From the IMG/VR virus record IMGVR_UViG_3300025853_000045, positions 1-64,000 of that record: 64,000 bases of DNA; one strand, 5' to 3'. Every line of letters begins with the position of its first letter. Position 1 is the stretch's first letter. Position numbers and translations under genes: made by a program. A model generated the notes under the pieces. That model was not told the DNA's origin, ran no database searches, and saw only the letters and a program-made list of their open reading frames with translations. The stretch comes from a virus. Shown here one piece after another: positions 21,474 to 53,944 of this stretch.

Positions 21474-22619
21474 TCATTGTAGGTCGCGAATTGAACCGCT
21501 TGCACCAAAGAAAGAACACCATAGTTCACCCATTGTTCGGTAAAGACCTTCTTGTCCAAGACGGTTAATCGCGAATGGGTCTCCGGTTTCAATTCCGGAT
21601 TCAAAGTATTGTGTCGGGATAGCGGTTTGGAACCACAAGTAATCCGTGTCGAGATAGTAAATTCGCGACAGACTGCTTGCACCTTCGTCAGGCATATCCT
21701 TTGTTGGAATCATTGGGACACCGTTGTAAGTAGCAACGATGAATCCTGCTTCAAGACCGGGAACACCCTTGACACCGTTGAAGGTTGGGGTGACACGCTT
21801 GCTGTCCATGAATCGCTGTTGTGATTGTAGGAGTTGTTGAACACGCATGAGTGTGTCGTAGCCTGTAAGCATGACCTTCGGATTACCACCGCGAGTCCAA
21901 AGTTGTTGGAACAATCCGTCCATCTGATTGAGGGATAGGTTGCGGTTTGCGGATGAGGAATCGACGTCGACTTCCGCGCTGTGGAAAGCGGCAGAACCAT
22001 CGCGAGTGATGGAATACATGTCGTGGTCGGTCAACGCGCTAACGTGCGTTGTTCCTGTGGTCATCTTGTCAGGGTCAGAAGTGATTCGGTCAAGAGACTC
22101 AAAATCATTGCCGACAGGAGTGTCGACATCTTCAAGGAGCATTCGGTTGATGTGTTCAGCGTGGTGCTTACCCATCTCTTCCTTGAGGACTTGTCGGACA
22201 TCGCCCATACCGTCGTCCTTGTCAGAAAGGAACATGCTTACTTCCGAAAGGTCGAAAGTGTGCGCGACAGTCTTTGGCTTTGCGGCAACGTGAAGGAATT
22301 CAGGCTTGGAGGTGTCAGGGAGAGTTCCGTTCTCCGCGATACCGCCACCCTTTGCGAAATCAGCGCGCTCGGTGAGGATACGCCATCCGCTTCGTTCCCA
22401 CGGTTTCTTTGGAAGAATAGAGAAGGCGTTAAACTCTTGGTTGAGTTGCGACCATACTTTTCGTCCGTAAATTGCTTGGTATGTTCCTGCGGTGCTGGAC
22501 AACAAAGGCGCGTCGGCCTTGAGAATGTCACCTGCTCCGTAGGTATATCCTGTTTGGGATGCGCCACCGTAATAATAACGCTCCATGTCTTGAACTGTTC
22601 TTACATAATTTCTTGCCAT
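21474..22619 (-). CDS. Major capsid protein, HK97 fold (381 aa)
   Basis: Follows the protease; GGAGGTGA ribosome site; motifs AFSILPKKPW, GGGIAENGTLP, KPKTVAH, FESLDRI, ATYNGVPMIP, IYYLD. Confidence 0.9.
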   Translation of the reverse strand: MARNYVRTVQDMERYYYGGASQTGYTYGAGDILKADAPLLSSTAGTYQAIYGRKVWSQLNQEFNAFSILPKKPWERSGWRILTERADFAKGGGIAENGTLPDTSKPEFLHVAAKPKTVAHTFDLSEVSMFLSDKDDGMGDVRQVLKEEMGKHHAEHINRMLLEDVDTPVGNDFESLDRITSDPDKMTTGTTHVSALTDHDMYSITRDGSAAFHSAEVDVDSSSANRNLSLNQMDGLFQQLWTRGGNPKVMLTGYDTLMRVQQLLQSQQRFMDSKRVTPTFNGVKGVPGLEAGFIVATYNGVPMIPTKDMPDEGASSLSRIYYLDTDYLWFQTAIPTQYFESGIETGDPFAINRLGQEGLYRTMGELWCSFFGASGSIRDLQ

Positions 22620-34416: not shown

Positions 34417-34833
34417 TCAACAATTCCACCGTTTCAACGCCGCTCCTTTCGGGGTCAACTTACCCTTTTTGGAAGTAGGACCTTTGACGCCACCCATCCG
34501 CGCACAAAAAGACTTACGGCGTTTAGCCTTCTTAGAACCCGCTTTCAATTTACTTGGTTTGGTCGTCACAGGAGGTTTGAGATTTGAGCCTTGTTCACGC
34601 TTTGCTTTAGCGCGCCCTTTCGCATTCAGTCCACCTTTACGATGATGCCTGTTGGGATTGTATCCGTGAAACGGTTTGCTCTTTTTCTTCGCTTTGAGAA
34701 CGCTATTCGCGATGTCAAACGGCGAACAACATGTGCAAAACGACACTTCTTTCGCGATGTCTTCGTCGTTCATCATTGCTAATTCTTCGGCTGTTATTGG
34801 TTCATCGTGGTATATGTATTCGTATTCTGTCAT
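34417..34833 (-). CDS. Small basic protein, DUF6321-like (138 aa)
   Basis: GGLNAKGR...GSNLKPPV...RRKSFCARM...LKRWNC; acidic N-terminus. Family name recalled, not searched. Confidence 0.65.
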   Translation of the reverse strand: MTEYEYIYHDEPITAEELAMMNDEDIAKEVSFCTCCSPFDIANSVLKAKKKSKPFHGYNPNRHHRKGGLNAKGRAKAKREQGSNLKPPVTTKPSKLKAGSKKAKRRKSFCARMGGVKGPTSKKGKLTPKGAALKRWNC

Positions 34834-34837
34834 GTTA

Positions 34838-35296
34838 TCAACTTCCTGTGTTGTGATATGCACCGCATCCTATAACTCGCGAACGACCGTTTTCATAGAC
34901 TACTCGGTAGCAACGATAAGCGCGAAGGCCGTATTCCCGCTGAATCCGCAATGCCTCTTGTTCGGAGCGAGGCTCTTTCCCATCGGGGCATTGATTGGCC
35001 TTCATGAAGACCCACGCCTCGTTCATCGCTTTAACGATGGTGGGCTTTCCGCCTACGCCCTGCTTTTTGCTACGCTTGCGTTTTGTCGCCGCGCGCTTTT
35101 GACCTGACGTCATCGAACCGCTTGTCTTTGGCGTCTTACTTGAAACTTTGACGGATGGTCGACACTTCGGATAACCCTTTGAAGAAGTCTTGGCTTTGCT
35201 TCGGCCACATGGAGGATGCTTACCATCCTTACCTGTGCGCGAAACATCCACCCACTTCTCCTTGAACCAACGGTTCAAGTTCTTCTCAACCGTCAT
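34838..35296 (-). CDS. Basic two-module protein (152 aa)
   Basis: LNRWFKEKWVD...PCGRS...YPKCRP module, then MNEAWVFMK and a RAYRC...CGAYH module. Confidence 0.65.
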   Translation of the reverse strand: MTVEKNLNRWFKEKWVDVSRTGKDGKHPPCGRSKAKTSSKGYPKCRPSVKVSSKTPKTSGSMTSGQKRAATKRKRSKKQGVGGKPTIVKAMNEAWVFMKANQCPDGKEPRSEQEALRIQREYGLRAYRCYRVVYENGRSRVIGCGAYHNTGS

Positions 35297-35689: not shown

Positions 35690-35989
35690 TCAACCACCTC
35701 GACAAATAGGGCAGGGGTCGCCTTCAATTTGGCCCTTCCCTTGACAAGCGGGGCAGTTAGCATCACCGCTTGGTTGTTCAGTCATAAACCCTTGAAGAAA
35801 TTGCATCATCTCGCGATTTTCGTCGGGCGTAAGAGGTGCGCGCAAGTTGGCAGGTTTTTGACAATGGTGATTATTCAAACCGTTTTCGCCGTAAAAATAG
35901 CGTTCGCATTTAGGACATTGCACTTTGCGACCGCCGCGCCCCTCATCTCCGAGAGGCATGTTTTTCAAAAAAAGCCACCAATCGCTCAA
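35690..35989 (-). CDS. Double zinc-finger protein (99 aa)
   Basis: MSDWWLFLK leader; CPKC..F.....L..H.C finger and DnaJ-type CPACQGKG...CPICRG. Confidence 0.65.
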   Translation of the reverse strand: MSDWWLFLKNMPLGDEGRGGRKVQCPKCERYFYGENGLNNHHCQKPANLRAPLTPDENREMMQFLQGFMTEQPSGDANCPACQGKGQIEGDPCPICRGG

Positions 35990-37386
35990 TCTAACAACCC
36001 CGCCATTATGTCATCCAAGTCCACAATACGCTCACGGAACTCCGTTGTCGCCCAATGAGCCAACGCGAGAGCAATAGCAAAGTCGTCATGCCGACCGATG
36101 CTGTCAAGCCGTCCTTTCTTGCTCATACCGAACATCAGCAATTCACGTTCAAGTTCAGACGTGAGTGTACGAGAACGGTCGTCACCGTAAGGCAATCGTA
36201 TTTGTTCATTCTCAAAACGCAACACCAACCCCATGAGTAGTGACTCGCGACGTTGCCGTGTGGATATGAATGTCTTAATTGGTAAGTCTGTATCCGCGCG
36301 TAGTTCTGTTGCGAAGACGCGTTGAAAGTTGTTGGCTTCAAGTTCGATGACGTCAGGATTGAATTTTGCATTCAAACGCTGTATCTCCATGATTTGCGTG
36401 CGGAAGTCCATGTTCTTACGACGAACCGCATGAACCATCTCAAGTAATTCAGGGTTGGTTGATGGACGTCGAAGAACGACCATCACGGTATAGTCAGCCG
36501 CGCGGTCTGATGAAATCGCGGGGTCCCAACCGATGAAGTATTGGTCGTCAGGGTCGCCTGTTTCACGTTCGATTAACCGAAGCGACGAATCTTTTGCCGC
36601 TTGAAGAACGGTGGATGGGAAGAGACTGCTAACGTCGTCCATTGGTTCACATAGATATTCACGCGCAAATGCAATCGCGGGCATATCGTTTCGACGTGCA
36701 TCAAGTGATTCTAAATCCCATCGTTCAGGCCACAACGCCTCACCTTTGCTGTTGATGGCAGGGTAAGTTTCGACAAGATACCCTTCGCGACTTTCCAACT
36801 CCGTGTAAAGGTCGGTCGGTGTAAACGGTGTTCCGACAATCATCAACTTGGATGTGTGGTGAAGTGTAGGAACAAGGACTTCGTAAAACCACGAAGCGAC
36901 GCGAGCGAGTTCTGTGTCGGTTGTTCCCCACAGAATGTCGTCGCATAGAATCAAGTCAGGGTGAATACCACGAATAGCACCACCAACCGACTTTGCGCTG
37001 ATGTTTGAGCCGTTACTGAAACCAAAAAATGTCTTCGACCATGAGTCAGCCTTCTTCATTTTCGCGAGAAACGGCACACCATCAATCAAATCATTGAGTG
37101 TGCGCATGTGGTGAATGGACTGATGAAGACTGTGCGAAATCAAAACGGCTTTGGTCTTGGGATTGAATGCAGTCTTCCAAAGCATGTAGCCAAGAAACAA
37201 CGTTGACTTACCGTGGTCACGCGCCGCTTTGACACAATATCGCTTTCGTGATTCAAGGTTGTTATACCACTGCTCATGATGCCACGACAATTGAAACCCA
37301 AGAATCTCTTCAAAGAAGAATTTGAAGTCGCGCTTCGCTACTTCAAAATCAATCTCTTCGATGGCTTCAAGGGATAACTGTTGCAC
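35986..37386 (-). CDS. terL: Terminase large subunit (466 aa)
   Basis: HHEQW, Walker A ARDHGKS, IRG, Walker B LILCDD, GTP coupling motif, nuclease IGWDPA...DYT and HDD. Confidence 0.95.
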   Translation of the reverse strand: MQQLSLEAIEEIDFEVAKRDFKFFFEEILGFQLSWHHEQWYNNLESRKRYCVKAARDHGKSTLFLGYMLWKTAFNPKTKAVLISHSLHQSIHHMRTLNDLIDGVPFLAKMKKADSWSKTFFGFSNGSNISAKSVGGAIRGIHPDLILCDDILWGTTDTELARVASWFYEVLVPTLHHTSKLMIVGTPFTPTDLYTELESREGYLVETYPAINSKGEALWPERWDLESLDARRNDMPAIAFAREYLCEPMDDVSSLFPSTVLQAAKDSSLRLIERETGDPDDQYFIGWDPAISSDRAADYTVMVVLRRPSTNPELLEMVHAVRRKNMDFRTQIMEIQRLNAKFNPDVIELEANNFQRVFATELRADTDLPIKTFISTRQRRESLLMGLVLRFENEQIRLPYGDDRSRTLTSELERELLMFGMSKKGRLDSIGRHDDFAIALALAHWATTEFRERIVDLDDIMAGLLD

Positions 37387-40816: not shown

Positions 40817-42042
40817 CCTATTCCACCTCTCCTGACATACAAGTCGTATGCGTGTGCGCCCCATCGCGTCGCATCGTCATCAGGGTCGGTCTCGGTTGGA
40901 CCTGTTGGATTTGATGTCTCCCCACCTGACGAATTCGGTGTGGACGTTTTATCTTCTTTATGCATCATGCGTCGCAACAAACGATTCAATTTGTCCATCA
41001 ACGTTCGATATTCAATCCTATCGCGAGGTGATATACCTACCTTGACTTTCTGTGCGCGTCCTTTCATGAATTCTTCGGAAGCGAGAATCGAATCCGCACC
41101 ACCCGCAAGTGAAGTTGCTTCTGTCATTTCTTGACCCATTGGTGTTGGTGCTGTGCGCGGTTGCCGAGTTGCTTTGCTGTGCAACTTCTTACGACCGCGA
41201 CCGCGAGGTGGTTTTGTCAATCGAGACATCGGAGACATCGTTGGGATAGGCGGTGTAATGTCCTGCGTTGGTTGTGTTTGTCGAATTTGTTGTCGTGCCG
41301 CTTCCGCTTCGCGTTGTCGTGGGTCAGGATATGCTTGTTTAGCACGCGAACGGCCTGTCGCACCACCGACACGGATAAATCGGGTTGGCTGACGGTATGT
41401 GTATCCTGTTCCAAACGAAGCATACGGAGCGCGAGCGGCAGAAAGGGCTGACATACTCCCCATCTGTCGAACGTTTCCTGCTTTGAGCGGAATACCGCTT
41501 CCTTTTCTTCGCCTTCGACGCTTGAGTGATTCGACGGTGACGTTTTTCCTCGCTTTACGCTTCTTACCTGTTTTCGCTCTCGCTCTCGCTCGTATTGTTG
41601 AAATCGTCGTTGTCTTCTGTGGTTTTTCGTCGTCGTATTTTGGCTTGTCGCGTTTTTTGCGAATCATTTCAAACGCGTCGTCGATGTAATCCGTCGTCGA
41701 GAGCATGATGTTCGCACCGAGACCACTCGCGTTCGGATTCGCACCGTCGATAGCCTCGCTTTGTCCGACCTGTCCTGTCATTTGACCAAGTTCAGCCTGT
41801 TGCTTCATATCGCTGTCTTCTTCATCGTCAGGATTCTTTTGAGGAATCTTAATTTTCATATGTTGAAGACCTTGCAATTTGCGTGCGCGCTTATCTTGTT
41901 CTTCACGCTTCTTTGCATCGTGAAGTGCGCGCTCTTCGGAGTCTTCGCGACCAACCGATGAATCTTCTTGCAATTCTTCCGCGCTTTGACGCGGATTGAA
42001 TCGAAAACCTGCGGTGCTTCCTGTTCCCGCAGTTCCAACCAC
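40813..42042 (-). CDS. Hypothetical Arg/Lys-rich protein (409 aa)
   Basis: Acidic N-terminus, then IDDAFEMIRK followed by a highly basic region. Confidence 0.7.
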   Translation of the reverse strand: MVGTAGTGSTAGFRFNPRQSAEELQEDSSVGREDSEERALHDAKKREEQDKRARKLQGLQHMKIKIPQKNPDDEEDSDMKQQAELGQMTGQVGQSEAIDGANPNASGLGANIMLSTTDYIDDAFEMIRKKRDKPKYDDEKPQKTTTISTIRARARAKTGKKRKARKNVTVESLKRRRRRKGSGIPLKAGNVRQMGSMSALSAARAPYASFGTGYTYRQPTRFIRVGGATGRSRAKQAYPDPRQREAEAARQQIRQTQPTQDITPPIPTMSPMSRLTKPPRGRGRKKLHSKATRQPRTAPTPMGQEMTEATSLAGGADSILASEEFMKGRAQKVKVGISPRDRIEYRTLMDKLNRLLRRMMHKEDKTSTPNSSGGETSNPTGPTETDPDDDATRWGAHAYDLYVRRGGIG

Positions 42043-42710
42043 TATTCGTCACCGCCCATCAATTTGTTACGAAGGCGCGCCCATACTTCAGGGCTTTCTT
42101 TCGCCAATTCAACTTTGAGGATGTTGATGGTTTGAGCGTTCATGGTTTCGTTCGTGCTTCCTGCCGCACGTTCTTGGACGCGCACGATGTCTTTCACCGT
42201 CTCACGCACTTCTTTGTGTAACGAAACAATGTTACGAACGTATTGAGGGTCGTTGCGGTCAGCATCGTCAAGAAAGTGACCTAATTCACCGTTGATTCGT
42301 GCTAAATTGTTACGCAAAGACTCCATCTCCTGCCCTGCTTCAACGATGATGAGGTCAGCCGCACCTTTTTGCACAACAGGCTTGAGGTGGTGTTTAAGAT
42401 GATGATATACGTTTGATTCAGGAATTTGGAGGTCGTCAGCGATTTGTTGGGTTGTCATTGATAAGTTGAAATACGCTTGCTCAAGGTTTTCGCGCTTTGG
42501 AGAAGTGCAAAAACCGCATTGACTGTTGCTCGCCATGTGATACTCGCCCATATGGTTACGAAAATGACGGTCAGCCGTTCCTTCACGCCATCCCATATCA
42601 CTATCCATATCTTTCGCGGTCATCATTCCGCTCTTCATCATCTCTTCCAAAGAGTCGCGACCCTCGTCCTGACAGAATTTGCAAGAAGCACGCGATATAC
42701 GCTCCGCCAT
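42042..42710 (-). CDS. Probable terminase small subunit or Zn-HTH DNA-binding protein (222 aa)
   Basis: Two tandem CxxC...HTH...HxxxH repeats (CKFC...RHFRNH; CGFC...HHLKHH) then a coiled coil; first gene of the unit leading to terL. Confidence 0.5.
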   Translation of the reverse strand: MAERISRASCKFCQDEGRDSLEEMMKSGMMTAKDMDSDMGWREGTADRHFRNHMGEYHMASNSQCGFCTSPKRENLEQAYFNLSMTTQQIADDLQIPESNVYHHLKHHLKPVVQKGAADLIIVEAGQEMESLRNNLARINGELGHFLDDADRNDPQYVRNIVSLHKEVRETVKDIVRVQERAAGSTNETMNAQTINILKVELAKESPEVWARLRNKLMGGDE

Positions 42711-42735
42711 AGCAAAGACCAAGTAGCCGTATCAA

Positions 42736-43056
42736 ATGAGTGTTTCTATGCGAGAGAGGCTTCGTCGTTCACCTAAAATAGCAGGTGTTCCGCTTTCAAA
42801 GAATACAGCAAAGAGTCTTTCTCGCGCCGCTATGGATATTATCAAAAACAACAAGGCTGACCTCACAGAACGAGAGCGTCGTTACAATATATGCCAACAA
42901 TGCCCTGAACGGCGACACGACCGATGCGGATTGTGTGGTTGTTTTATCAAAACAAAGACGATACTGCTCAACAGCGAATGCCCTATTGGTAAATGGTCAA
43001 CCTTGTTGTCCGAGTCGTCGGTAAATCATTCCCGTCGCGCTGAACGAGACGAATAG
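42736..43056 (+). CDS. Small Cys-rich protein, DUF6171-like (~102-106 aa)
   Basis: RRYNICQQCP....RCGLCGCFIKTKT.L....CPIGKW. Family name recalled, not searched. Confidence 0.7.
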   Translation: MSVSMRERLRRSPKIAGVPLSKNTAKSLSRAAMDIIKNNKADLTERERRYNICQQCPERRHDRCGLCGCFIKTKTILLNSECPIGKWSTLLSESSVNHSRRAERDE

Positions 43057-43230
43057 TGCGCCGATAACCCAACTTAAGTCGGTTGAAGTCATTTGTGGTC
43101 CTGAAAAGACCAAGATAAGAAAGCAACCAAGCGTCAATGTGATAAGTTGAACCATAATCATGTCAACAATAACTGATTTGCGCAAATTTGTCATATCGCT
43201 GATGGTCGTGTATAGCGAAGAGATGTCCAT
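42997..43230 (-). CDS. Small two-TM membrane protein, holin-like size (77 aa)
   Basis: GGAGGT ribosome site before MDISSLY; two hydrophobic helices; basic C-terminus. Confidence 0.7.
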   Translation of the reverse strand: MDISSLYTTISDMTNLRKSVIVDMIMVQLITLTLGCFLILVFSGPQMTSTDLSWVIGALFVSFSATGMIYRRLGQQG

Positions 43231-43231
43231 A

Positions 43232-43813
43232 TCATCGACCTCCTGCCATTCCGCGCATGAACGAACCGATGCCACCACCAACGTTCTGTAACATGCCGGG
43301 GTCCGCGAGAGCGTTATCCAACATACCTTGTAACGAACTTTGGTTTGCGATTTGCACCATTTGTTGGAATTGCATGTTTGTTTGTTGAACATTGTTGGAT
43401 GCTTGATTGAGTATTTGCGTTTGCGCCATCGTGACGCTATCAGCAGTCGGTAATCCCTGCACACCGCTAAAATCGAACGTATATCCGTTGTCCTTTTCGA
43501 CCAATTTCGCGTTTGATAGCATTGTGTGGACAGAAACAGCAACAAGACTGCTCAAAAGCGAGATAAGCATGTTCATATTTGCGCCGTTGTTGTCCGATAA
43601 CCACTTGTCGATGAGAGGATTGCTTGTTATCATCGCGGACAAAATATCCATTTCTGACGGTGGTGGAGGTGGCGCATAGGGGTTGTATCCCCCATTTTGC
43701 GTTCCATTCGTGATTTGATACGGAACTTGTTGCTGTCCGCTCGGTAATCCGAGATTCAACGCGCCATTTTGTTGTTGCGCGGGTTGGTTATTGTTGCTAA
43801 AAGGCCACACCAT
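43232..43813 (-). CDS. Q/N/P-rich protein with amphipathic segments (193 aa)
   Basis: MVWPF start, YAPPPPPSE, hydrophobic MLISLLSSLVAVSV, C-terminal GIGSFMRGMAG. Confidence 0.7.
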   Translation of the reverse strand: MVWPFSNNNQPAQQQNGALNLGLPSGQQQVPYQITNGTQNGGYNPYAPPPPPSEMDILSAMITSNPLIDKWLSDNNGANMNMLISLLSSLVAVSVHTMLSNAKLVEKDNGYTFDFSGVQGLPTADSVTMAQTQILNQASNNVQQTNMQFQQMVQIANQSSLQGMLDNALADPGMLQNVGGGIGSFMRGMAGGR

Positions 43814-43822
43814 GATACAACC

Positions 43823-44704
43823 TCACGCTACACCATCATTTGATTCTGTCGGTAAAGGAAGAGGGGCGGTTTGTTGCTGTGCTTGATGTATCGCGAGCGC
43901 ATCAAACAACAACCGCGCATTGTTCCCTGCTTGAAATTGACGCATATCAAACACAATCATCACTAAATCATTCATTCCTGTCGCGGTATTGGTTAAATGT
44001 GTGACAGGAATGTTATCTTGTTTGAGCATTTGAAAGAATGGCTCATATTTAGCGAGTATTGGAGGTGTGTTGTCCTTCTTTTTGATGCTACTGATTGGCA
44101 CAGCAACGGTCGAAACACCCTTTTTCAACTTCGCTTTAAGCGTCCCACCGCTCGCTTCCTCTTCTTTCTCGTCTTCTTTCTCCCATTTCGTCAACAAATG
44201 ATACAAATGAAGGTGTTCAGGGCAGTATGTTGCGCGCAATTTACGCCCACTTGTGACTTTTTCGCGTGCTACAAAGGCTTCAACCTCGCCTGTTACAGGG
44301 TTTTTGAAGTACAAATCCCACAACGTTTGACCTGTTTCTTCGTCTCCAACCTGCTCGTAAATGTTCCCTGCATGTCGTAAAAGGTGTTCAACATCGCATC
44401 CGTCAACGCAACATCGCATTGTGTTGGTATTGTAACGATATTTACCGCCCCAAATGCGTTTGAGAGAGAAAATTGACCTTTTTGTGGGTTTCAAGAGGCG
44501 ATATGCTTGCTTTATGTCCTTTCTTCGCGCTTTTTTGGGGTTTGGGTGCTGTGAAGGGTAAAAATTGACCTGCGGAACTTCGATATGTTGGCTCGCATTG
44601 CTCATCGCGGCCTGTGCGGATGCCTGTTGTTGCATCTGTGCGAGGCTCATTTGTGTCTGTGCGGCGAGGCGTAAGAGGTCGTTTTGAGGGGTATTACCAA
44701 GCAT
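43823..44704 (-). CDS. Hypothetical protein with probable Zn site (293 aa)
   Basis: Q-rich N-terminus; CCVDGC...YCPEH. Confidence 0.7.
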   Translation of the reverse strand: MLGNTPQNDLLRLAAQTQMSLAQMQQQASAQAAMSNASQHIEVPQVNFYPSQHPNPKKARRKDIKQAYRLLKPTKRSIFSLKRIWGGKYRYNTNTMRCCVDGCDVEHLLRHAGNIYEQVGDEETGQTLWDLYFKNPVTGEVEAFVAREKVTSGRKLRATYCPEHLHLYHLLTKWEKEDEKEEEASGGTLKAKLKKGVSTVAVPISSIKKKDNTPPILAKYEPFFQMLKQDNIPVTHLTNTATGMNDLVMIVFDMRQFQAGNNARLLFDALAIHQAQQQTAPLPLPTESNDGVA

Positions 44705-44708
44705 TTTA

Positions 44709-45431
44709 TCACCAATTTAGCATTTCAATCAACGTTTTTTCCACATTCCAACCAATTTTCGTCGCCATCATGCTAACGCGACACGGAATACCTGCTTTTT
44801 GAAGCCTCCGCATGGCAGGACGGTGCGAATCGAACACTTTATGCTCGCGTAATCGGTTGGATTGCCACAAAATGTTCGCATTATCATCCCACCACTCGTC
44901 CGCTTTGTTCGCGACGAGCCATATTTGCTTCGGAGCGTAGCGTTTTCCGCGCAATCTTGTCAATAATGAGCGGTATCTCCACCGTTTTTCAATCAACGAG
45001 TCGGTGAGATACTCAAAACCACCGATTGCGTCAATAACTTCGGCTCCTTGTCCTTTCAAGACGCGCGTATCTGTCATAAATATGACAATTTCGACTTGTC
45101 GGTCAACCATATCGTCAATCCACAAGTTCCAAAAGCGTTGCTGACCGCCAATATCAGACGAATGTACCACTCTTTTCTCCCCCTGCCATCGAATTCGCTT
45201 TCGCGTGGCTTTTGGTAAGACGTATCCGCCACCGATAAGGCGTTTTGCGTGCATTGTGCGGTCTTCGATGTCGTCCATTTCACCCGGAGTGCGCATAAAT
45301 TGGTCGAGCGTGGTTTTTCCAACGCGAGTTGGACCGTAAACACCAATCCTGCGTGGTTTTACGAAGTTATACAACTCCTTACCGTAAACAATCGCGCCCA
45401 TAAGTGCGCTTCCTGCTACTGTTCCGACCAA
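44709..45431 (-). CDS. Small Ras-superfamily GTPase, Arf/Sar-like (240 aa)
   Basis: G1 GPTRVGKTT, candidate G2 Thr (DRT), G3 DIGGQQRFWNLW, VIFMTD, G4 LVANKAD, G5-like MATK.G.NV; hydrophobic N-terminal helix. Confidence 0.9.
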   Translation of the reverse strand: MVGTVAGSALMGAIVYGKELYNFVKPRRIGVYGPTRVGKTTLDQFMRTPGEMDDIEDRTMHAKRLIGGGYVLPKATRKRIRWQGEKRVVHSSDIGGQQRFWNLWIDDMVDRQVEIVIFMTDTRVLKGQGAEVIDAIGGFEYLTDSLIEKRWRYRSLLTRLRGKRYAPKQIWLVANKADEWWDDNANILWQSNRLREHKVFDSHRPAMRRLQKAGIPCRVSMMATKIGWNVEKTLIEMLNW

Positions 45432-45668
45432 TCATTCCACCCATCCGCGTATTTTATTGAAAAACCACTCAACTGTGTTCTCCCAAATGCTTACATCGGT
45501 TGCTTGTTCAAACCATGATACACCAAGAGCCGTTGAAAAACCAACGATGATGCATAAAACCAACGCTTTACCGCGTTCGTAGTAAGTGTCGAGTGTGTTT
45601 TGAGTATGTAAAGCGCGCAACGTTGCTTCCGTAGCATCATCTGATGGGGTTTTGAACAACCAACCCAT
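45432..45668 (-). CDS. Small single-TM membrane protein (78 aa)
   Basis: GGAGTGA ribosome site; ALVLCIIVGFSTALGVSWF; amphipathic C-terminus WENTVEWFFNKIRGW. Confidence 0.7.
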   Translation of the reverse strand: MGWLFKTPSDDATEATLRALHTQNTLDTYYERGKALVLCIIVGFSTALGVSWFEQATDVSIWENTVEWFFNKIRGWVE

Positions 45669-45673
45669 AACGT

Positions 45674-46195
45674 TCACTCCTTTTTCTTGTCTTTCGCGTA
45701 TGTCCCGTCAGCGTTTCGCTTACGACCACCGCTCAAATTAAGTGGTTCTTTCTTTTTTGCTTTGTGTTGAGGCGCGTCAGGCTCATAATCAACATTCATC
45801 AAATCGAGATACTGCTGAACTTCGGGGTCTTTCTCCAACTCTTCAAGTTGTTTCGCGAATGCGACCTCTTGTTTCTTGATTTCAACGTCCATTTGAGCCT
45901 TAGCAAACCGCATTTGTTGGTTTTGCATCTGTCGTGTCATGCTTCGTTGCATGTTTGAAATAACAGCGCGCTGGTCCATACCATCTTGTGCTATCATCTT
46001 GTAAATAAAATACGACATGCCCTGTAATGTGAATGCGCCCATCATGTATGTTATCGCGTTTGTTTGTGTTGAATCATCTTTCAGCCATAGCCCTGCGTCA
46101 AAGACTGCAATCGCGGCTCCAACGAGTATAGCGACGAAAGAAATCAGTCCGAATACTCTCAATTCATCTTTATTTTGTGGCGTTCGCTCTTGCAT
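45674..46195 (-). CDS. Two-TM membrane protein with cytoplasmic coiled coil (173 aa)
   Basis: GGAGGT ribosome site; two hydrophobic helices followed by a Q/K/E coiled coil. Confidence 0.75.
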   Translation of the reverse strand: MQERTPQNKDELRVFGLISFVAILVGAAIAVFDAGLWLKDDSTQTNAITYMMGAFTLQGMSYFIYKMIAQDGMDQRAVISNMQRSMTRQMQNQQMRFAKAQMDVEIKKQEVAFAKQLEELEKDPEVQQYLDLMNVDYEPDAPQHKAKKKEPLNLSGGRKRNADGTYAKDKKKE

Positions 46196-46257
46196 ATCAA
46201 ACAACCTCCATACATACCGCGTGACGCGAGCGATACATAAGCATGTTGATTCACCTC

Positions 46258-46327
46258 TTTATTGATATTATCATATTATTATTACAACAATATAGTATAT
46301 TATCATTATAAGAAAAATATGATATTA
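46258..46327. promoter_or_regulatory. AT-rich intergenic island upstream of the GTPase cluster
   Basis: About 70 bp almost devoid of G/C, far more AT-rich than the flanking genes. Confidence 0.55.
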
Positions 46328-49300
46328 TTGAGAATCATCTTCTCCCAATTGCGGCACGTTCGGTCGAGGGAAAAGTTGGAATTGCGGCAACCCTGCCGTT
46401 TCAAGTTGCTGTTGTGGTGTCATTGGGATTCGCGGTGATGGCATTTGAGATACCGTCGTTGGTTGCTTTTGCGGTGCGACAGGAGGCGCAAGTGATACAG
46501 GGCGTTGTGCTGTTGATTGTATCGGCGTTCCCGCGTGCCTTCGGTGCGCTATCGAATCGTATATATGTAAATCATCGAAGCGACCGTGTTGCCATGTGGG
46601 GTGGAAACCGTTGATGCCTTTTATCACGTTTTCAAATTCTTTCATTTCGGCTTGATTCAATTTTCCTTCTGATGCCGCTTGCGACACCTCTTCGGCTGAC
46701 GCGAATCCACCCTTTTCCATCAAGTCCATCATTTTTTGGTCATAAACGACATTTGGCGTATATTCGTGTTCAGCCACTTTCCACATCAAGTCGTGCATTT
46801 GTTTGTCTTGTTGTCGCGCTTCTTCGGATGCGCTGTAATTGACAGCGACGCTTTCTTTGAAGACTTGTTGCGCGTTTGGAATGGAGTGCGGTGTTACGTC
46901 GGCAGGTTTAGCGTCGTTCAAAATTTCTTCTTTGAAATCATCACCTTTCAAACCTGCAACCTTTTTCGACATCGTTAATTTCTTTTCCATATCGTTCTCA
47001 TCTTGGAATCCTAACATTCGCGCGGCTTCGTTGTAGGCTTGAGTCATGAGGGGGGTATCGTTTTGTATGAGTGTCAGGAAGTTACCCGGCGACATGCGCG
47101 TGTCAGCCGACAATCCAACTCTTTTGTTCGCGGACACAATCTTTTCGTGCAATCCAACGTGGGACAATCCGTCGTATTCTTCACACAACTGTTTCAAACC
47201 TGTCAAAAGCGCGAATTGATGCCACATTGGTTTGACTGCGTTTCGGACTTCTGCATTGTATTCCGCGTCTAACCCTTTTCGCTTAACAGGGCCGTGAACG
47301 TATTCTCCTTCCTTTAAATCGCGTGAGAAGTATAAATTGCGCTTCGATTGTTTCATTTGATTTTTAATTTCGTCAGTCCATGTAGGTTCGGCTGATGACG
47401 TCTCGACATTTTCAAAATCGACTCTTCGGTCAGCATCAAATCCGAATTCATCCAACAACGCTGACAAAGCAGGGTGCGACATCTTGGTCAGTTTTTGCTT
47501 CACCATCGGTGTGTATTTCACACCTTTTTCTCGCGCATCGTTGGCTTCTTTGTCATCAGCGCGTCCTGTGGTGACAAGATTCAACATTTTGTTGGCTTCT
47601 TCTTCGTCGAAGCCACTCTCGCCCGTATGACGATTCCATGCTTGAGTGAATTCAGGTGAGTGTCGGAACAAATGAAGAACGTCTTCGACGTCCATAACGT
47701 AAGGCTTACCTGCGTTCTTAGGATGAAAAATTTCTCTTAGCGACTCAAACGGTGTTTGAAAACGCCCATGTTCATAGATGAGTGAACTATATTCCGAAGG
47801 ATTGTCTCCCCTTAATCGACCTTCTTTGTCCACGCTGAATTGTTGTTTTTCACTTCTTACAAGATGACGTGTCGCGTAATCGTGAAGTCGTTCCATTGCT
47901 TCCGACACTTCATGCTCTTCGTCTCCGTGAGACATGGATTTGTCAGGGTGGTTGAGAACCGTGTTGAGCAATTCAAGAACTTCATCTTTGTCTTGACCAT
48001 TTTCAATAGCCGTGTTCGCCATGTTACTTGCGCGCACTTCAATCATGTTTTCGTGATACGCTCTCATCAGCGCGTCACTCTTTACTTCGCTTTCAGGTAA
48101 TTGGTCGATACCTGCTGAATCTTGCGGTTGTTGTGCGAGCCGCTCAATTGCGTCTTCCATTGAAGCAGGAGCCATCTGACGAGGCGATGCGTCTTCTTCT
48201 CCTTGTTCGGCTCTAAATTGCGCAACAAGGTCTTGGAACGTCTTTTCTCTTCTTCGCGCTTCGTCTCCGCCACCGTAACGCTTTGCGTTCAATTCTCGGA
48301 TTGTTCCCATGTTGGTCAAAGGTGCAAACATACCTCTCGCGACGTTGTCTTTGAACACCTCAAGTGCCATACTTTTTGTCGAAGGGCGTCCTTTGACACC
48401 CATAACTCGACCCAACTTTTCTTGAAGTGTGTCGGTTGTAAACGATTTACCATGATGAGGATTGTGTCGTTCACCTTCATATGAGTGTTCGACACCATTA
48501 TCATCGACCATTGAATATCCCTTGAGCCAATCGTCGTCGTCAGGGTGAAGAATGCCGTGTCCGTGACATTGCGAACAAACACCGTCAGCACACCGTCCTG
48601 TGGGCGAATCTTCGTTTTCGTGGTCGCAATCAGGGCAAGTGACGTGATGATGTTCGTGTGGCTCTTTTCGCGAACCTTCAAAATTTTCTTTGTTTGGTGG
48701 GCGCAAGTGTTTTCTGATGTGTTCTCTCATCGCTTTACTTTGAGGGTGCGCGTTGCGAAGTAGTGGATTATGGGCGCGTATGTAGGATATTGCATCATTC
48801 ATAGTGACGGCTCGATTACCACCACACGTTCCGCACGCAGTCGCACCACCGCGAGAAAATGGCACGTCGAACGATTCACCGTTTTTAATTCGCTTAAGTT
48901 CTTCATCGGTGTAATGACTGTTTTGAATGGCTTTTGCAATCTCGTTTTCAGTCATCTCTTTTTCTTCTTCTTCTATGGTTTTGTTGCCCGTCAAAATATC
49001 CAAGCGCGCTCTTGTCATATCAGCCTCGTTGTATTGAGCATCAAGAATAGCGTTCATTTGTTTGCGCGAAAGTCCGCGCTTGTTGTATTTACGACTGTGG
49101 GCTTGCAACACAGCCATGTCAGAAAGATTTGGTAAGTGCTTGTTGTTGTCCATGAACGTGAGACCTGTTCCACCACTTGCGCCCATTTGACCCACCATGT
49201 ATTCGTCAGGTGCATACAAAGTTGATTGGCGCGTATTGCCCTCTCCGTCAGCCATGAAGACAGTCGAAAGAGGGAAGCCATCGTCGCCTGTGTAAAGTTG

Positions 49301-52300
49301 TTCACGCAACTTAAGAAGCATGTTGAGTTGCTTCTTTTCGTCTTTTTCTTTGAGAATAGGCGCGAGAAGGTTTTCGTATTTTTTCTTCTTTTCGTTGTAT
49401 GACATGCAATTGACCAATGCACCAAGCGCGTATTCGTTTCGTCGCTTGTTGTATTCTTCGTCGTTTCTGACGATTTCAGTCTTTGATTCAATGCCGCTTA
49501 TTCGATTCTTCATTCTCTTGAAGTAATCGGCAGGATTCTTCACACCATCCCTGAATGCTTCCTTTTCAAAGAACAACGTTTTACCTGCTTGGAGGAACGA
49601 GTTCTTAGGAACTTCGGTAAATCGAATTGCACCGCGCCCCGCCTCAACATTCTCAATCAACGGTTTGTCGAGAACGAGACGGTAATTTTCACCTTGTTTT
49701 CGCGGTGGGCGACTGTCGACGATGCGATAGGTCTGATTACTCAAGTGACTCAGCGACCCTACGGTGATTTGAGAGTCGCCAATTTTGATGTTATGAAGAC
49801 CCATAGCATATCGCGGAATCTCAATCTCTCTTTGCCCCATTTGAGCGTCCTGCACCATATCGACATGTCCGTCGCGTATAGCGTGCAATCTTTCGTTGAG
49901 TTCATCCGCGTGTTGTTGTGCTATCGCCGCCTTTTGTTGCATCGCGATTGCGTGTCCTTTAGGATTAACTTTTTCCTGCAAATTACCGCTTTCGACGCGC
50001 TTACCGAACTCTTTGTTCCACGCATCCATCGCGAGTTGATAACGTTCTTCGATACCACCCAAGTGTTCTTGAAGCATCTGATACCGACGCAACTTTGCTT
50101 CGTTCTTTTTGGCGAGATTGATGTCTTTGCTGTTGTTTACAATGAACTTCTTGATGTCGCTTCTTCCTTTGAAATCTTTGACTTTGTAATTGTATTTCTT
50201 TTTACCCTCTTTGTATTGGTATTTGCCGTCTTCGACGTCGTTCATAATCTCCAACGCTTCAACAAGACCACCCATTTGCGCGTTGAACAAATTGTCCAAT
50301 CGCAACTGTTCACGTTCTTCGTCGCCCATGAAATTTGAACCCGCAATATGTCCAATCGCGACACGTTGCGCGGCAGAACTTCTCGCTCCACCCATCGGTT
50401 GAATTTTTTCATCTTTGAATTTGATGCCCGGAAATTCAACGTCCAAATCTTCAATTTTTTCGTTGTATTTCAGCGCGGCTTTGCGTATTTGATTCTTGAT
50501 TTCTCGACGAACACCGTCGCGACCACCCTGATAGTATTTCGCTTTACGTTCCAATTTGCTTTTGAATGTGCTAAATTCAGTTCCTTCACCCAACACATGA
50601 TGTGCAATCTTAGCCAACGACGTTTTGCTTTCATCGTCAGAAAACAACGGAATGTATTCGTCTTCGTTCGTTAGTGTATTGAAGATGAAATCGAGTTGCG
50701 GAACCATGACACGCTTGTGTTTTATCGACGATGTGCGTGCGCCGTCGCGAGCCATCCTCGCCTCTTCAGGCGTCGACGATGAAAAATGCTTAGGGTGACA
50801 CGCAACACATTGCTCTTCATCGTCAATGATTTTTTCTTTGCGCTTATCAGGTAAGCCTTCCAATTCTTCTCCTTCTTTTGGTTTCGCGTTGTGATGGTCG
50901 ATGTGTCGCTTTGTTTGCGCTATTCTTTCTTCGTAGCGCGCTGTATTCTCAGCGTGTGCATCGTTCATTCGCTTGATAGCATACATTGTTCGCAACGCCG
51001 CACCTTTCGTTATGTCGCCGCCCAACTTACCAAACATGCTCGCGAATGCTTGGTCGAATCCTTCTTTTGTAAATCCTGAATTTGCATAGCGCGCTCCCAT
51101 ATCAGCAATGTCGATGGGGTCAATGCCGAATTGTTCAGCGATGTTGCGCAACTCTTCTGCGTCTCTCGCCGCTTTGTTGAGGAATTGTTGCGTGACCCCT
51201 GCTTCAAAACATGTGTTGTATCGCTCAATGTTCTTTTCAGATTGCTTGTTTAATGCTGATTCAGGGTCGTCAGCGTTTACTATTTGATTCATATTGTAAA
51301 TGTCTTCGGTGTTGAGATTCAAGTCCATAATTTCTTTTAACGACAGACCGCTTTTCCTCAACTTCCCTCTCACTTGAACAACGCGACGATTCGCTCCAAC
51401 CAAATCATCCATGAACTTCGATGCTTCTTTGATGATTTGAATTTCGTCGAGTTTATGATACGGGTGGCCTTCAGGGAAGTCATCTCCGTGAGGAATTTCG
51501 CTGAAATACGTCGGACGATAGTCTCCTGTGACGTCGTTCAACACTTGGTCGCGAAGGTAATTGTATTCATCTCGACCACCTTCAAACATGTCGTTTTCCA
51601 ACATGAAATCTAAATCGAGAAGACGGCTATCTTGCGCGACTGTTGCTTGTCCTCCACCACGTCTCGTTGATGCAGTATAACGCCCCAACTTGGTCTGCTT
51701 TACACCACCTTTCGTTCCTTTTACTTCACGTTGCATTTCTTCAACAGAAGGAAGATTGGCTGTTTCACCGCGCGCACTTCTATCTCCACCACGTTCAGTT
51801 CGCTCCTGCAAACCAACGTCTTTGATGTCGGCTGACACTCCCACTTCAGGCATTTTCGCTTTGCTATCCACTTCATCTCCCAACTGATACAGAATGCCTT
51901 CATCTAAAGCAGTAGCAAGAGCAGGGTGCGCTTCCATTTCATTATCGAATTGAGGCGGGTCGCGTGCAATTGCGCGTCGATTCTTTTCGCTGTTCGGTGC
52001 GTCTCCGCGTAAGAAAAATTCCGTCATACCATCAGGTGCGTTTGGTCGCGATTCCAACGTCACACCCATCTTACGCGCCTGTTCGTAAAACGAAGGCGTA
52101 ACGAAGTCGGGAGCCTTGATTGACGTTGCCGCACGACCAAAGCGTCCACCGCGTCCCGCAGTCCCGACAGCACGATTTTGTAGGAATACGCGCATGTGTT
52201 TGTTCAAATCTTCTTGAACCAACTGCACCGCTTCTTTGACGTCAGATAGACCTTCGTCCTTCGCTTTACGGTCAATCAACCGCTTCCATTTGTTCATTTC

Positions 52301-53248
52301 TTTCGCTTTACCCGCATACACTTCGCCGGGTCGGAATACAGGGCTTGAGAAAACCTGTTGTTCATACAACTTCTTTGCTCTATCAAGGTCAGCGCGCACT
52401 TTTCGCGGCTCATCAAAATATGCCGCCTGTTCTTCAGGCGTTTTGTATTGCGCGCTAAAGTCTTCACGGTTTGGTTTGGCTTGAGTGACACCTTCCAACA
52501 TGCTTTGCGGTATGTCGCGCAATGACTTTCGACCCGACACTCTTACCATCGAACCTTTCTTTGGTCGCTCTTTGAATTTGCCAAGACTGCGGAACGTTGT
52601 TTCACTCAACGGGTGTCGAGACTTTTCTTTGAAGTATTCCATCAACTTGTTTTTTCCTCGCGGCGAATCAGCGTTGTCAATCCATGCTGTGATGTCAGGT
52701 GGCACGCCATGTGTTTTCATTCGCTTCCCTAATTCACCGTTGTCTTGTTCGTCGATGTCTTTAATGAACTGCAACTCTTGACCGTCTAACGGTTCGCGAC
52801 CGAGCAAATCCGCTTCTTTTTCTAAAAATTCTTCGCTTTGAAAGTGTTCAATCATCTTGTCGAGTGAATCAAGAACGCGCTTCGTAATAATCGGAACAGA
52901 CATCATGCTCGGTATTGCGATGTCACCCTCTTCATCAAGCACTTCGCTGTATCGTTGGTCTTCGTCAAGACCCAATTTATCAGCCAACATATTGTTGTTC
53001 GCGAAAAGAATGTCGTCGTAAAGTTCACCGAAGTCAATGTCACCGACTTCTGTAAATTCATCGTCGTCTTCTTCACCTTCTTTCCAGCGCGGAGGATTTT
53101 TCATCAATTTTTCCATGTATCGCGCCATGAGCCTGTCAGCCAACTGTTGATTGGTTGGTGCTGTGCGCCTCATACCACGCTTGAATCGTCGGACGGTGTC
53201 CTCTTCCTCTTCTTCGTCGGCCTTGATGATACGGACAAAGCGACGCAT
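46325..53248 (-). CDS. Very large hypothetical protein (2,307 aa) with CxxC/DnaJ-type Zn motifs
   Basis: Start moved to MRRFVRIIK|A to avoid overlap with the divergent gene; charged and helical; CVACH, CGTCGG, CPDC, CSQCHGHG. Confidence 0.8.
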   Translation of the reverse strand: MRRFVRIIKADEEEEEDTVRRFKRGMRRTAPTNQQLADRLMARYMEKLMKNPPRWKEGEEDDDEFTEVGDIDFGELYDDILFANNNMLADKLGLDEDQRYSEVLDEEGDIAIPSMMSVPIITKRVLDSLDKMIEHFQSEEFLEKEADLLGREPLDGQELQFIKDIDEQDNGELGKRMKTHGVPPDITAWIDNADSPRGKNKLMEYFKEKSRHPLSETTFRSLGKFKERPKKGSMVRVSGRKSLRDIPQSMLEGVTQAKPNREDFSAQYKTPEEQAAYFDEPRKVRADLDRAKKLYEQQVFSSPVFRPGEVYAGKAKEMNKWKRLIDRKAKDEGLSDVKEAVQLVQEDLNKHMRVFLQNRAVGTAGRGGRFGRAATSIKAPDFVTPSFYEQARKMGVTLESRPNAPDGMTEFFLRGDAPNSEKNRRAIARDPPQFDNEMEAHPALATALDEGILYQLGDEVDSKAKMPEVGVSADIKDVGLQERTERGGDRSARGETANLPSVEEMQREVKGTKGGVKQTKLGRYTASTRRGGGQATVAQDSRLLDLDFMLENDMFEGGRDEYNYLRDQVLNDVTGDYRPTYFSEIPHGDDFPEGHPYHKLDEIQIIKEASKFMDDLVGANRRVVQVRGKLRKSGLSLKEIMDLNLNTEDIYNMNQIVNADDPESALNKQSEKNIERYNTCFEAGVTQQFLNKAARDAEELRNIAEQFGIDPIDIADMGARYANSGFTKEGFDQAFASMFGKLGGDITKGAALRTMYAIKRMNDAHAENTARYEERIAQTKRHIDHHNAKPKEGEELEGLPDKRKEKIIDDEEQCVACHPKHFSSSTPEEARMARDGARTSSIKHKRVMVPQLDFIFNTLTNEDEYIPLFSDDESKTSLAKIAHHVLGEGTEFSTFKSKLERKAKYYQGGRDGVRREIKNQIRKAALKYNEKIEDLDVEFPGIKFKDEKIQPMGGARSSAAQRVAIGHIAGSNFMGDEEREQLRLDNLFNAQMGGLVEALEIMNDVEDGKYQYKEGKKKYNYKVKDFKGRSDIKKFIVNNSKDINLAKKNEAKLRRYQMLQEHLGGIEERYQLAMDAWNKEFGKRVESGNLQEKVNPKGHAIAMQQKAAIAQQHADELNERLHAIRDGHVDMVQDAQMGQREIEIPRYAMGLHNIKIGDSQITVGSLSHLSNQTYRIVDSRPPRKQGENYRLVLDKPLIENVEAGRGAIRFTEVPKNSFLQAGKTLFFEKEAFRDGVKNPADYFKRMKNRISGIESKTEIVRNDEEYNKRRNEYALGALVNCMSYNEKKKKYENLLAPILKEKDEKKQLNMLLKLREQLYTGDDGFPLSTVFMADGEGNTRQSTLYAPDEYMVGQMGASGGTGLTFMDNNKHLPNLSDMAVLQAHSRKYNKRGLSRKQMNAILDAQYNEADMTRARLDILTGNKTIEEEEKEMTENEIAKAIQNSHYTDEELKRIKNGESFDVPFSRGGATACGTCGGNRAVTMNDAISYIRAHNPLLRNAHPQSKAMREHIRKHLRPPNKENFEGSRKEPHEHHHVTCPDCDHENEDSPTGRCADGVCSQCHGHGILHPDDDDWLKGYSMVDDNGVEHSYEGERHNPHHGKSFTTDTLQEKLGRVMGVKGRPSTKSMALEVFKDNVARGMFAPLTNMGTIRELNAKRYGGGDEARRREKTFQDLVAQFRAEQGEEDASPRQMAPASMEDAIERLAQQPQDSAGIDQLPESEVKSDALMRAYHENMIEVRASNMANTAIENGQDKDEVLELLNTVLNHPDKSMSHGDEEHEVSEAMERLHDYATRHLVRSEKQQFSVDKEGRLRGDNPSEYSSLIYEHGRFQTPFESLREIFHPKNAGKPYVMDVEDVLHLFRHSPEFTQAWNRHTGESGFDEEEANKMLNLVTTGRADDKEANDAREKGVKYTPMVKQKLTKMSHPALSALLDEFGFDADRRVDFENVETSSAEPTWTDEIKNQMKQSKRNLYFSRDLKEGEYVHGPVKRKGLDAEYNAEVRNAVKPMWHQFALLTGLKQLCEEYDGLSHVGLHEKIVSANKRVGLSADTRMSPGNFLTLIQNDTPLMTQAYNEAARMLGFQDENDMEKKLTMSKKVAGLKGDDFKEEILNDAKPADVTPHSIPNAQQVFKESVAVNYSASEEARQQDKQMHDLMWKVAEHEYTPNVVYDQKMMDLMEKGGFASAEEVSQAASEGKLNQAEMKEFENVIKGINGFHPTWQHGRFDDLHIYDSIAHRRHAGTPIQSTAQRPVSLAPPVAPQKQPTTVSQMPSPRIPMTPQQQLETAGLPQFQLFPRPNVPQLGEDDSQ

Positions 53249-53320
53249 TGTTATAGCGCACGACAACCATGCCCTTGAAGATAGCGGTATTTCTTTAATC
53301 GCGAATAGCATGCGTTGTTT

Positions 53321-53944
53321 ATGGGCGCGCCGTTTGCACAGTCTTGGGCGTTTCTCAAAGCCGAGGCTTACATCAATATGAATAGTGATGTTCACAATCA
53401 AACTATTGTTCCTCAAGTTGAGGGTGGTATGCATAGTCCAAAAGGCACTTTCATCTCTTCACTACCGCGCTATCAACAACCAAGACCCGATGGACCAAAT
53501 TACCGACGCGGGGGTTCAGTTCCGCGTAATTGGGATGAAAAACACGGCAATCAGCGATTTACGGGAGTGAATGTCGCTAACCAATGGCAACACCTTCGCG
53601 ACGAAAATCCAACCGTTGACGAGGAAGAATTGCAAGATTCATTTGCTGATAAGTTCGCTACTGCTTCTGCACATGAGGATGTTCACGGTTTGACAGACGC
53701 CGAAATAGGCACATGGGCGGCACACGCGGTTGGTGGTTTCCCTGCCAATTTAGCGGCAACCAACTTTTCTGTTCCTAAAAATCGCGTAAAAGATTGGAAA
53801 ACGCTTCGCGACATGGCTCATGAATATGGTGCTTACAGCCTAACTGAACCCGAAGCAAAGAAGCGGAAAATGGAGTATTACCACTTTGCTCCTTATTTGA
53901 CGGGTGAAAAGGATATTTCAGAATTACATTCGGGTTCGCGTTAA
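53321..53944 (+). CDS. Putative zinc metallopeptidase-like protein (207 aa) with SW..K leader
   Basis: HEDVH (53672-53686) plus downstream HEYGAY Glu; starts MGAPFAQSWAFLK|A; TTTAAT about 25 nt upstream. Confidence 0.6.
   Translation: MGAPFAQSWAFLKAEAYINMNSDVHNQTIVPQVEGGMHSPKGTFISSLPRYQQPRPDGPNYRRGGSVPRNWDEKHGNQRFTGVNVANQWQHLRDENPTVDEEELQDSFADKFATASAHEDVHGLTDAEIGTWAAHAVGGFPANLAATNFSVPKNRVKDWKTLRDMAHEYGAYSLTEPEAKKRKMEYYHFAPYLTGEKDISELHSGSR

Follow-up and report, generated by a model that had tools for sequence, protein, structure and literature searches.

What would an archaeal tailed virus do with a small GTPase of the Arf/Sar kind, and why would it encode that GTPase among a run of small membrane proteins? 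The question is raised by IMG/VR virus record IMGVR_UViG_3300025853_000045, of which positions 1 to 64,000 were analyzed (a stretch of 64,000 nucleotides, hereafter the window). A first-pass annotation had placed a small GTPase at 44709-45431, inside a six-gene operon of membrane proteins, and had read the operon as a GTPase-timed module for membrane remodelling. We find that the GTPase belongs to a virus-only, Arf-like family, that it is a core gene of the viruses that carry it, and that it is part of a mobile five-gene cassette; these are the points that are new here. It is highly probable, in our judgment, that the cassette is a membrane-linked GTP-switch module. The six open reading frames (ORFs) are all found on the minus strand with gaps of 5, 0, 4, 9, and 1 nt, in agreement with the co-directional run with gaps under 10 nt that had been described. 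In the direction of reading they are as follows (TM, transmembrane; aa, amino acids):

45674-46195, minus strand: g1, 173 aa; TM segment at ~14-37, weaker hydrophobic segment at ~47-68, charged coiled-coil, basic tail
45432-45668, minus strand: g2, 78 aa; one TM segment
44709-45431, minus strand: the GTPase, 240 aa, TTG start; Arf/Sar/SRbeta-like G domain
43823-44704, minus strand: g4, 293 aa; Q-rich ends, conserved Cys/His, predicted soluble
43232-43813, minus strand: g5, 193 aa; Q/N/P-rich, PPPPPSE tract, hydrophobic stretch at 80-100
42997-43230, minus strand: g6, 77 aa; two TM segments, short basic C-terminus

That the virus encodes a true small GTPase, as first annotated, is borne out by conserved motifs, by a G-domain fold, and by a family that is effectively confined to viruses. 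The motifs (G1, G33-x4-GKTT, here GPTRVGKTT; G3, D93-IGGQ97; G4, N175-KAD; and a G5-like A223-T, in MAT) follow one another in the order G1, G3, G4, G5, as in the Ras superfamily (TRAFAC), and all bar Q97 are conserved in the family. NKAD is present in 185 of 207 members, with NKYD, NKMD, or NKFD in 19 more, and judging by this NKxD motif the GTPase is guanine-specific. The first-pass annotation had also described an intact G1, G3, and G4 with the catalytic Gln. This is true of the window's protein, which has Q97, but the Gln does not hold as a family feature: the residue that follows DxGG among the 207 full-length members is Q in 97 (47%), E in 74, D in 25, H in eight, A in two, and S in one. 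The catalytic Gln belongs to the window's subclade and not to the family. In addition, the family has conserved insertions, one between G1 and G3 (switch I) and a Trp-rich one after NKAD (W180, W181, L188, W189, H197).

Which kind of GTPase is this? Taken alone, the protein had no match in single-sequence searches of Pfam, PHROG, or PDB, and a profile built from close homologues only (A1) had no match in PDB. PDB was reached only once divergent members were taken into the profile (A2), with 8oun as the best match (E 3.8e-6), followed by Arl8A and Arl8B (~3e-4) and then by Rab33. Entry 8oun is titled only "GTP-binding protein"; we take it as an Asgard ArfR because the neighboring entry, 8oum, is titled Gerdarchaeal ArfR1. 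The Pfam Arf family (PF00025) was matched by 10 of 20 members (best E 0.0048, all below the gathering score) and not by the window's protein, SRPRB was touched by one of the 20 (E 0.19), and weak Pfam matches extended to MMR_HSR1, Roc, and EF-Tu type G domains. The predicted model has a six-stranded G-domain fold. Its fold scores are highest against Arl8b (17.9), Arl1 (17.5), Arl10B (17.4), Arf1 (17.3), Arl6 (17.0), GerdArfR1 (16.7), Arf6 (16.6), HodArfR1 (16.4), and the membrane-bound form of Arf1 (16.2), with Rag and Rab5 next best at 15.7 or less. An unbiased scan of 48,161 representative chains gave Arf6 (17.0, 16.9), Sar1 (16.6), and SRbeta (16.4), with LokiRagO, G-alpha, and others at 15.7 or less. 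Since sequence profile and fold agree, the nearest known kind is the Arf/Sar/SRbeta group, and the Arf/Sar likeness first noticed from the sequence is upheld, with Arf, Arl, Sar, SRbeta, and Asgard ArfR as the nearest relatives. The margin of this assignment is modest, a lead of one to two Z units in the predicted model together with sub-threshold profile scores. Chance or artefact as the origin of the GTPase signal is excluded by the hundreds of homologues, the high-confidence fold, and the conserved synteny.

The N-terminus bears on how such a protein would meet a membrane. Ahead of the first internal Met there are ten residues whose protein sequence is conserved among homologues (G7, S8, and G12 are invariant), so that the long, TTG-started form with its hydrophobic N-terminus is the real product. 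The predicted model places a helix at 3-24. Residues 1-17 are uniformly apolar, with a hydrophobic moment of at most 0.22 and small-xxx-small spacing, and are followed by K/R residues; only ~15-26 are amphipathic (moment up to 0.57), and this part aligns with the amphipathic-helix region of 8oun. A hydrophobic N-terminus is found in 72% of family members. The hydrophobic N-terminal helix of the first-pass annotation is thus present, but it probably departs from the classic amphipathic Arf helix that it had been likened to, and from its composition this N-terminus looks more like a short SRbeta-type anchor than a switchable Arf helix.

Could the protein instead be a soluble regulatory GTPase, acting in translation, packaging, or nucleic-acid handling, with its N-terminal helix buried and its TM neighbors functionally unrelated? 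The shortness of the hydrophobic run, which lies below the 19-residue TM threshold of the hydropathy scan used throughout, would suit such a protein, as would the weak matches to MMR_HSR1, Roc, and EF-Tu type G domains. We nevertheless regard it as very unlikely. By fold it is closest to Arf, Sar, and SRbeta, which are membrane-associated, its N-terminal segment, small-xxx-small residues included, is conserved as protein, and the same TM neighbors travel with the GTPase through three genomic contexts.

These contexts correspond to three deep clades of the GTPase. In clade 1, to which the window belongs, g1 to g6, a gene that we call g7, and the gene for the large terminase (TerL) stand in the same order and on the same strand in 80 of 80 IMG/VR loci, flanked by a giant gene on one side and by the genes for DUF6171, a helix-turn-helix (HTH) protein, and TerL on the other. 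The GTPases of clade 2 (375 IMG/VR loci) are ~31% identical to the window's; here a five-gene order is kept in 65 of the 69 loci with enough flank, and the cassette is placed between the genes for the major capsid protein (MCP) and the tail tube. Just upstream of it, among the head genes, lies the gene for a protein of 164 aa that ends in a SAP DNA-binding domain at its C-terminus (L090, 6487-6981, plus strand). In clade 3, of which one locus was examined, the same five genes come directly after a thermosome gene. The five-gene core consists of a two-TM coiled-coil protein, a small TM protein, the GTPase, a Cys/His protein, and a Q-rich protein.

Homology of the partners across clades was assessed by profile comparison. 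It is found for g4 (E 3.5e-6), for g5 and its clade-2 counterpart (E 3.1e-6), and for g1 and the gene that opens the clade-3 cassette (hhalign, 97% probability, E 3e-11), with a weak match of g2 to its clade-3 counterpart (E 1e-4). The comparison of g1 and g2 with their clade-2 counterparts was not significant by hhalign, and their correspondence in that clade is therefore one of position and architecture only. Because the order is kept in three genomic contexts and the partners are homologous, we infer that the five-gene core relocates as a block. The sixth gene, g6, is present in 80 of 80 clade-1 loci, was not seen in clade 2 or clade 3, and is an addition in the window's clade. Gene order had been named in the first-pass annotation as one of the points on which its reading would stand or fall: the order is strongly conserved, but only five of the six genes recur beyond clade 1.

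What are the partners? Hydrophobic segments occur in five of the six cassette products, all but g4. The first, g1, has a TM hairpin with a weakly hydrophobic second helix ahead of its charged coiled-coil and basic tail. In g2, an acidic N-terminal peptide (MGWLFKTPSDD..E.TLR..H) is invariant, and its stop abuts the GTPase start. The conserved residues of g4 are C98, C103, C161, H164, and H166, and g4 is a candidate partner of the GTPase. Besides its one hydrophobic stretch, g5 has an invariant PPSE motif and a Gly-rich C-terminus. The likeness of g6 to holins is one of size and topology only (two TM helices and a charged C-terminus), with no holin match in Pfam or PHROG. Searches of the same two databases found no known domain in the cassette partners, and the earlier proposal that the neighbors serve as exchange factors (GEF), GTPase-activating proteins (GAP), or effectors is left without detectable similarity to known regulators.

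The family is distributed in a way that points to viruses alone. A word-index search gave 391 homologues of the GTPase, which come from marine and Tara samples and frequently lie on contigs 90-117 kb long, and an exhaustive scan of 1.84 billion representative proteins gave 70 matches. Among 185,579 species genomes there was one match, on a 16-kb contig (NZQM01000026.1, L083) of a metagenome-assembled genome labelled as the bacterium Parvibaculum sp.; this contig is probably mis-binned magrovirus DNA. A tblastn search with the GTPase against 50,697 phage records found no match, and GTPases of the P0182 type had no IMG/VR locus. On the strength of these searches, the family is isolated and effectively virus-only. 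Automated pipelines of the Joint Genome Institute (JGI) label some members "GTPase SAR1 family protein", and Atlas clusters are auto-named, for example, "Ras family domain-containing protein".

Within clade 1, the GTPase evolves slowly and with its genome. Its identity across the 80 loci is 58% to 98%, with a median of 82%, the highest of the cassette genes, as compared with a median of 89% for TerL. Since its divergence is tightly correlated with that of TerL (Spearman 0.94, n=74), the GTPase is a vertically inherited core gene.

Which virus is this, and what does it infect? The minus strand carries the coding from 3 to 53434, with the exception of the DUF6171 gene, and a divergent plus-strand block starts at ~54.4 kb. 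The genes by which the virus can be placed are:

35986-37386, minus strand: T4-type large terminase (TerL)
31068-32897, minus strand: portal
22619-24043, minus strand: S78 prohead protease
21474-22619, minus strand: SU10-type MCP
15130-17061, minus strand: tail tube protein
opening genes of the divergent block, plus strand: superfamily-2 helicase and a DUF932 protein

The best matches of the MCP (33% identity) and the portal (30%) are the haloarchaeal Druskaviridae HCTV-1, HVTV-1, and HCTV-5, and 11 of 11 matches of the two proteins among the 50,697 phage records are archaeal viruses. The same identity figure and pattern were given for magroviruses by Philosof et al. (PMC5434244). Four complete or near-complete relatives of 103-118 kb were reached via the GTPase, one of them with direct terminal repeats, and all four encode PolB and a Cpn60/thermosome chaperonin. 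PolB, a chaperonin, and such a capsid and portal are hallmarks of viruses of marine group II (MG-II, Poseidoniales) (PMC5434244, PMC5332604, PMC10768690), and the assignment of the Poseidoniales as host is taken from these papers. MCM (PF00493) was not detected in the four relatives; because magrovirus MCM is described in the literature as highly divergent, we do not weigh its absence against a magrovirus identity. Marine origin, a tailed virus of ~90-120 kb, an MCP and portal related to those of Druskaviridae, PolB, a chaperonin, and divergent blocks for replication and morphogenesis were all found. Given the MCP and portal matches and the PolB and chaperonin of the relatives, the window is, by its gene content, that of a magrovirus-type archaeal tailed virus (order Magrovirales). 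An archaeal host without peptidoglycan had been supposed in the first-pass annotation, and the MCP and portal matches, together with PolB and Cpn60 in the relatives, agree with it, the host itself being assigned after those papers.

How, then, might the cassette work? The N-terminal hydrophobic helix and the K/R residues after it would keep the G domain at the host membrane, on its cytoplasmic side, in an SRbeta-like topology. In its GTP state the G domain would draw g4 and g5, as soluble proteins, to the membrane proteins g1 and g2 (in clade 1 also to g6), and the assembled complex would remodel or breach the cytoplasmic membrane late in infection, so controlling exit from a host without a peptidoglycan wall. 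That the cassette controls virion egress or lysis is the function we favor, tentatively, and at somewhat less than even chances on the present sequence evidence. Several observations lead us to favor it. The cassette is on the same strand as the morphogenetic genes and contiguous with them, and in clade 2 it lies inside them, a late context. Head-tailed archaeal viruses lyse cells by a system that is still not known (PMC10791045), and there is no lysin-like gene in the window; the absence of an endolysin noted at first reading was confirmed, with no lysin-like Pfam family in any ORF scanned, the window included. In addition, g6 is holin-like in size and topology, and the clade-1 cassette sits just upstream of the terminase block. 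Finally, a GTPase that deforms euryarchaeal membranes is already at hand in ArvA, a small GTPase that drives membrane vesiculation in Euryarchaeota (PMC10927574).

Other observations weigh against an exit function, or against the GTP switch on which it would depend. Clades 2 and 3 lack g6, which alone is holin-like, and none of the partners has a likeness to known GEF, GAP, coat, or pore proteins. The hydrophobic N-terminus spans only ~17 residues, under the threshold for a TM segment, and with the Gln replaced in 53% of the family, GTP hydrolysis may be slow or partner-dependent. In tailed phages, genes for lysis are as a rule mosaic and quick to evolve, and a slow-evolving, vertically inherited core GTPase would be unusual for a lysis gene. 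The clade-2 position is one where head-completion genes usually lie, and it fits assembly equally well as exit.

This last point, and the conservation of the GTPase, lead to a different reading, in which the cassette is a membrane-bound platform for assembly or maturation, with the GTPase and its partners marking the site for proheads, for portal initiation, or for packaging. Membrane-assisted prohead initiation in phage T4 follows a comparable logic. A core gene that is conserved like TerL and diverges together with it is what one would expect of such a platform, as are a clade-2 cassette embedded between the MCP and tail genes and a clade-1 cassette directly upstream of the HTH/TerL block. 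We think this reading unlikely, though deserving of attention: the cassette proteins show no similarity to known assembly factors, and the clade-3 cassette comes after a chaperonin gene and not after structural genes.

Comparison with known systems helps to place the cassette among them. Relative to the Arf family (Arf, Arl such as Arl8, Sar1, and Asgard ArfR1), the viral GTPase is ~60 residues longer, with its conserved insertions, and its region from switch I to beta-2 is ~17 residues longer than that of Arf1. Its Pfam Arf scores are all under the curated cut-off, its first 17 residues are uniformly hydrophobic and not amphipathic, the catalytic Gln is kept in only that 47% of members, Gly2 and a myristoyl context are lacking, and no known Arf GEF or GAP domains were found nearby. 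The viral GTPase resembles SRbeta in its Arf-like G domain and its putative N-terminal anchor, but a partner of the SRalpha/SRX (longin) kind was not detected; SRbeta is eukaryotic, whereas the viral family occurs in archaeal viruses. Giant viruses of eukaryotes also encode small GTPases, for example mimivirus, whose Rab (PDB 5xc5) resembles host Rabs and acts in eukaryotic cells. In contrast, the GTPase described here is Arf-like and not Rab-like, is without a close cellular homologue, and has a partner set of its own in a tailed virus of archaea.

The holin-based lysis cassettes of phages are similar in being compact runs of small membrane-protein genes near late genes; g6 resembles a class-II holin in size and topology, and the clade-1 cassette lies just upstream of the terminase block, as the lysis cassette does in lambda. 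However, the viral cassette has no endolysin or spanin and no holin match in PHROG or Pfam, it includes a GTPase, a component not known from lysis cassettes, and its conservation is much higher than is usual for lysis genes.

By description, there is also a likeness to ArvA-ArvB-ArvC (OapABC), which acts on the euryarchaeal cytoplasmic membrane and which likewise combines a small GTPase, an N-terminal membrane-interacting helix, and an operon whose other products are small, a Zn-binding protein among them (PMC10927574). This likeness opens the possibility of a host take-over at the membrane, in which the module would rewire a host process for the benefit of the virus or for superinfection exclusion; the process might be ArvA-type vesicle formation, the control of division or of cell size, or secretion or the function of the SRP receptor (SRP, signal recognition particle). 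An Arf/Sar/SRbeta-like fold with an SRbeta-like N-terminal anchor would suit this. Vesiculation in Euryarchaeota needs a small GTPase together with two proteins of its operon, of which one is a Zn-ribbon protein (PMC10927574), and in a similar way the viral GTPase is paired with a Cys/His protein. Even so, we judge a take-over, and each of these processes with it, to be quite improbable. Homologues of OapB (PF09846) and OapC (PF09845), that is, of ArvB and ArvC, were not found at E <= 0.1 in the four complete relatives, although the positive controls, Haloferax and Methanosarcina, gave matches, and the viral partners are TM and Q-rich proteins without a recognized fold. Moreover, the cassette sits with the late and structural genes and not in the divergent replication block, and there is no close relative of the GTPase family in cells to speak for mimicry.

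A self-contained, virus-borne GTPase machine, made up of the anchored GTPase with two membrane and two soluble partners, none of which has a cellular homologue, might serve as the exit system of archaeal tailed viruses or as a membrane-bound virus factory, an outcome that we consider somewhat doubtful. If true, it would be an independent, virus-borne invention of small-GTPase membrane remodelling outside eukaryotes and Asgard archaea. We found no mention of a GTPase in the magrovirus papers searched (PMC5434244, PMC10160649 with supplements, PMC11706807, and PMC5332604), in the Aoguangviridae profile of the ICTV, or in a survey of archaeal Caudoviricetes (PMC8651126). Magroviruses are among the most abundant marine viruses (PMC5434244) and most of their genes are without an assigned function; the cassette is a concrete candidate for a membrane step of their cycle. 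It had been suggested that the GTPase bears on small-GTPase evolution outside Asgard archaea and eukaryotes. A virus-only branch does so, but Arf-like G domains of this sort were already known there, from bacterial protein clusters that partly carry Pfam Arf and from ArvA (PMC10927574). The viral branch joins ArvA and Asgard ArfR (the latter described in bioRxiv 10.1101/2024.02.28.582541) as a further prokaryotic Arf-like GTPase, and bears on the origin of GTPase-controlled membrane dynamics. In addition, a family in which about half of the members are without the canonical catalytic Gln offers a natural experiment in the switching-off of such GTPases.

Does the cassette have boundaries of its own? 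Two features delimit it:

46196-46324, minus strand: spacer between the 2369-aa gene and g1, with an AT-rich 120 nt at 46205-46324 and GGAGG before g1
42736-43056, plus strand: DUF6171 gene, 106 aa, Cys-rich (CxxC...CxxCGC...CPxGKW), Pfam E 1.1e-6, above the cut-off

The spacer corresponds to the AT-rich region that had been placed ahead of the cassette, and its GC content is 0.24-0.38 in close relatives; GGAGG is the predicted ribosome-binding site of g1. Upstream of g1, several subclades share the recurring motifs GGTGAATCAA and CCTTTATTT. Found 30-60 nt upstream of the g1 start codon, GGTGAATCAA, or CCTTTAT(T/C)T in other subclades, looks like a candidate conserved promoter or operator element (loci L007, L015, L030, L037, L048, L062, L065, and L071). 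At the other end, the DUF6171 gene is convergent to g6 and overlaps its last 60 nt, is the sole plus-strand gene within the long minus-strand block, and is conserved in this orientation in 79 of 80 related loci. The DUF6171 overlap and the upstream motifs give the cassette plausible transcriptional boundaries.

Beyond DUF6171, in the HTH/TerL block, g7 (42042-42722, minus strand) encodes an HTH protein of 226 aa with Cys pairs and a coiled coil. It takes the position of the "HTH domain-containing protein" before the terminase in halovirus HVTV-2 (L084, 13004-13666), to which it has no significant similarity, and by position it may be a small terminase. Among the small ORFs between terminase and portal there is a DUF6321 protein (34417-34863, minus strand, E 4e-16).

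The minus strand also carries three giant ORFs: 46325-53434 (2369 aa) and 24062-29986 (1974 aa), both without a Pfam domain, and 3-10370 (at least 3456 aa), which runs past the low-coordinate end of the window and has a lectin-like Laminin_G_3 domain. The 2369-aa gene, upstream of the cassette, is fast-diverging, with 22-51% identity in all clade-1 loci but one, and was not detected in the more distant loci of the set (L039 onward). Many independent IMG/VR contigs (L001, L004-L006, L009-L012, and others) stop ~8 kb upstream of the GTPase, at the start of this gene and the divergent intergenic region (~53.4-54.4 kb), which suggests a physical genome end or a terminal repeat there.

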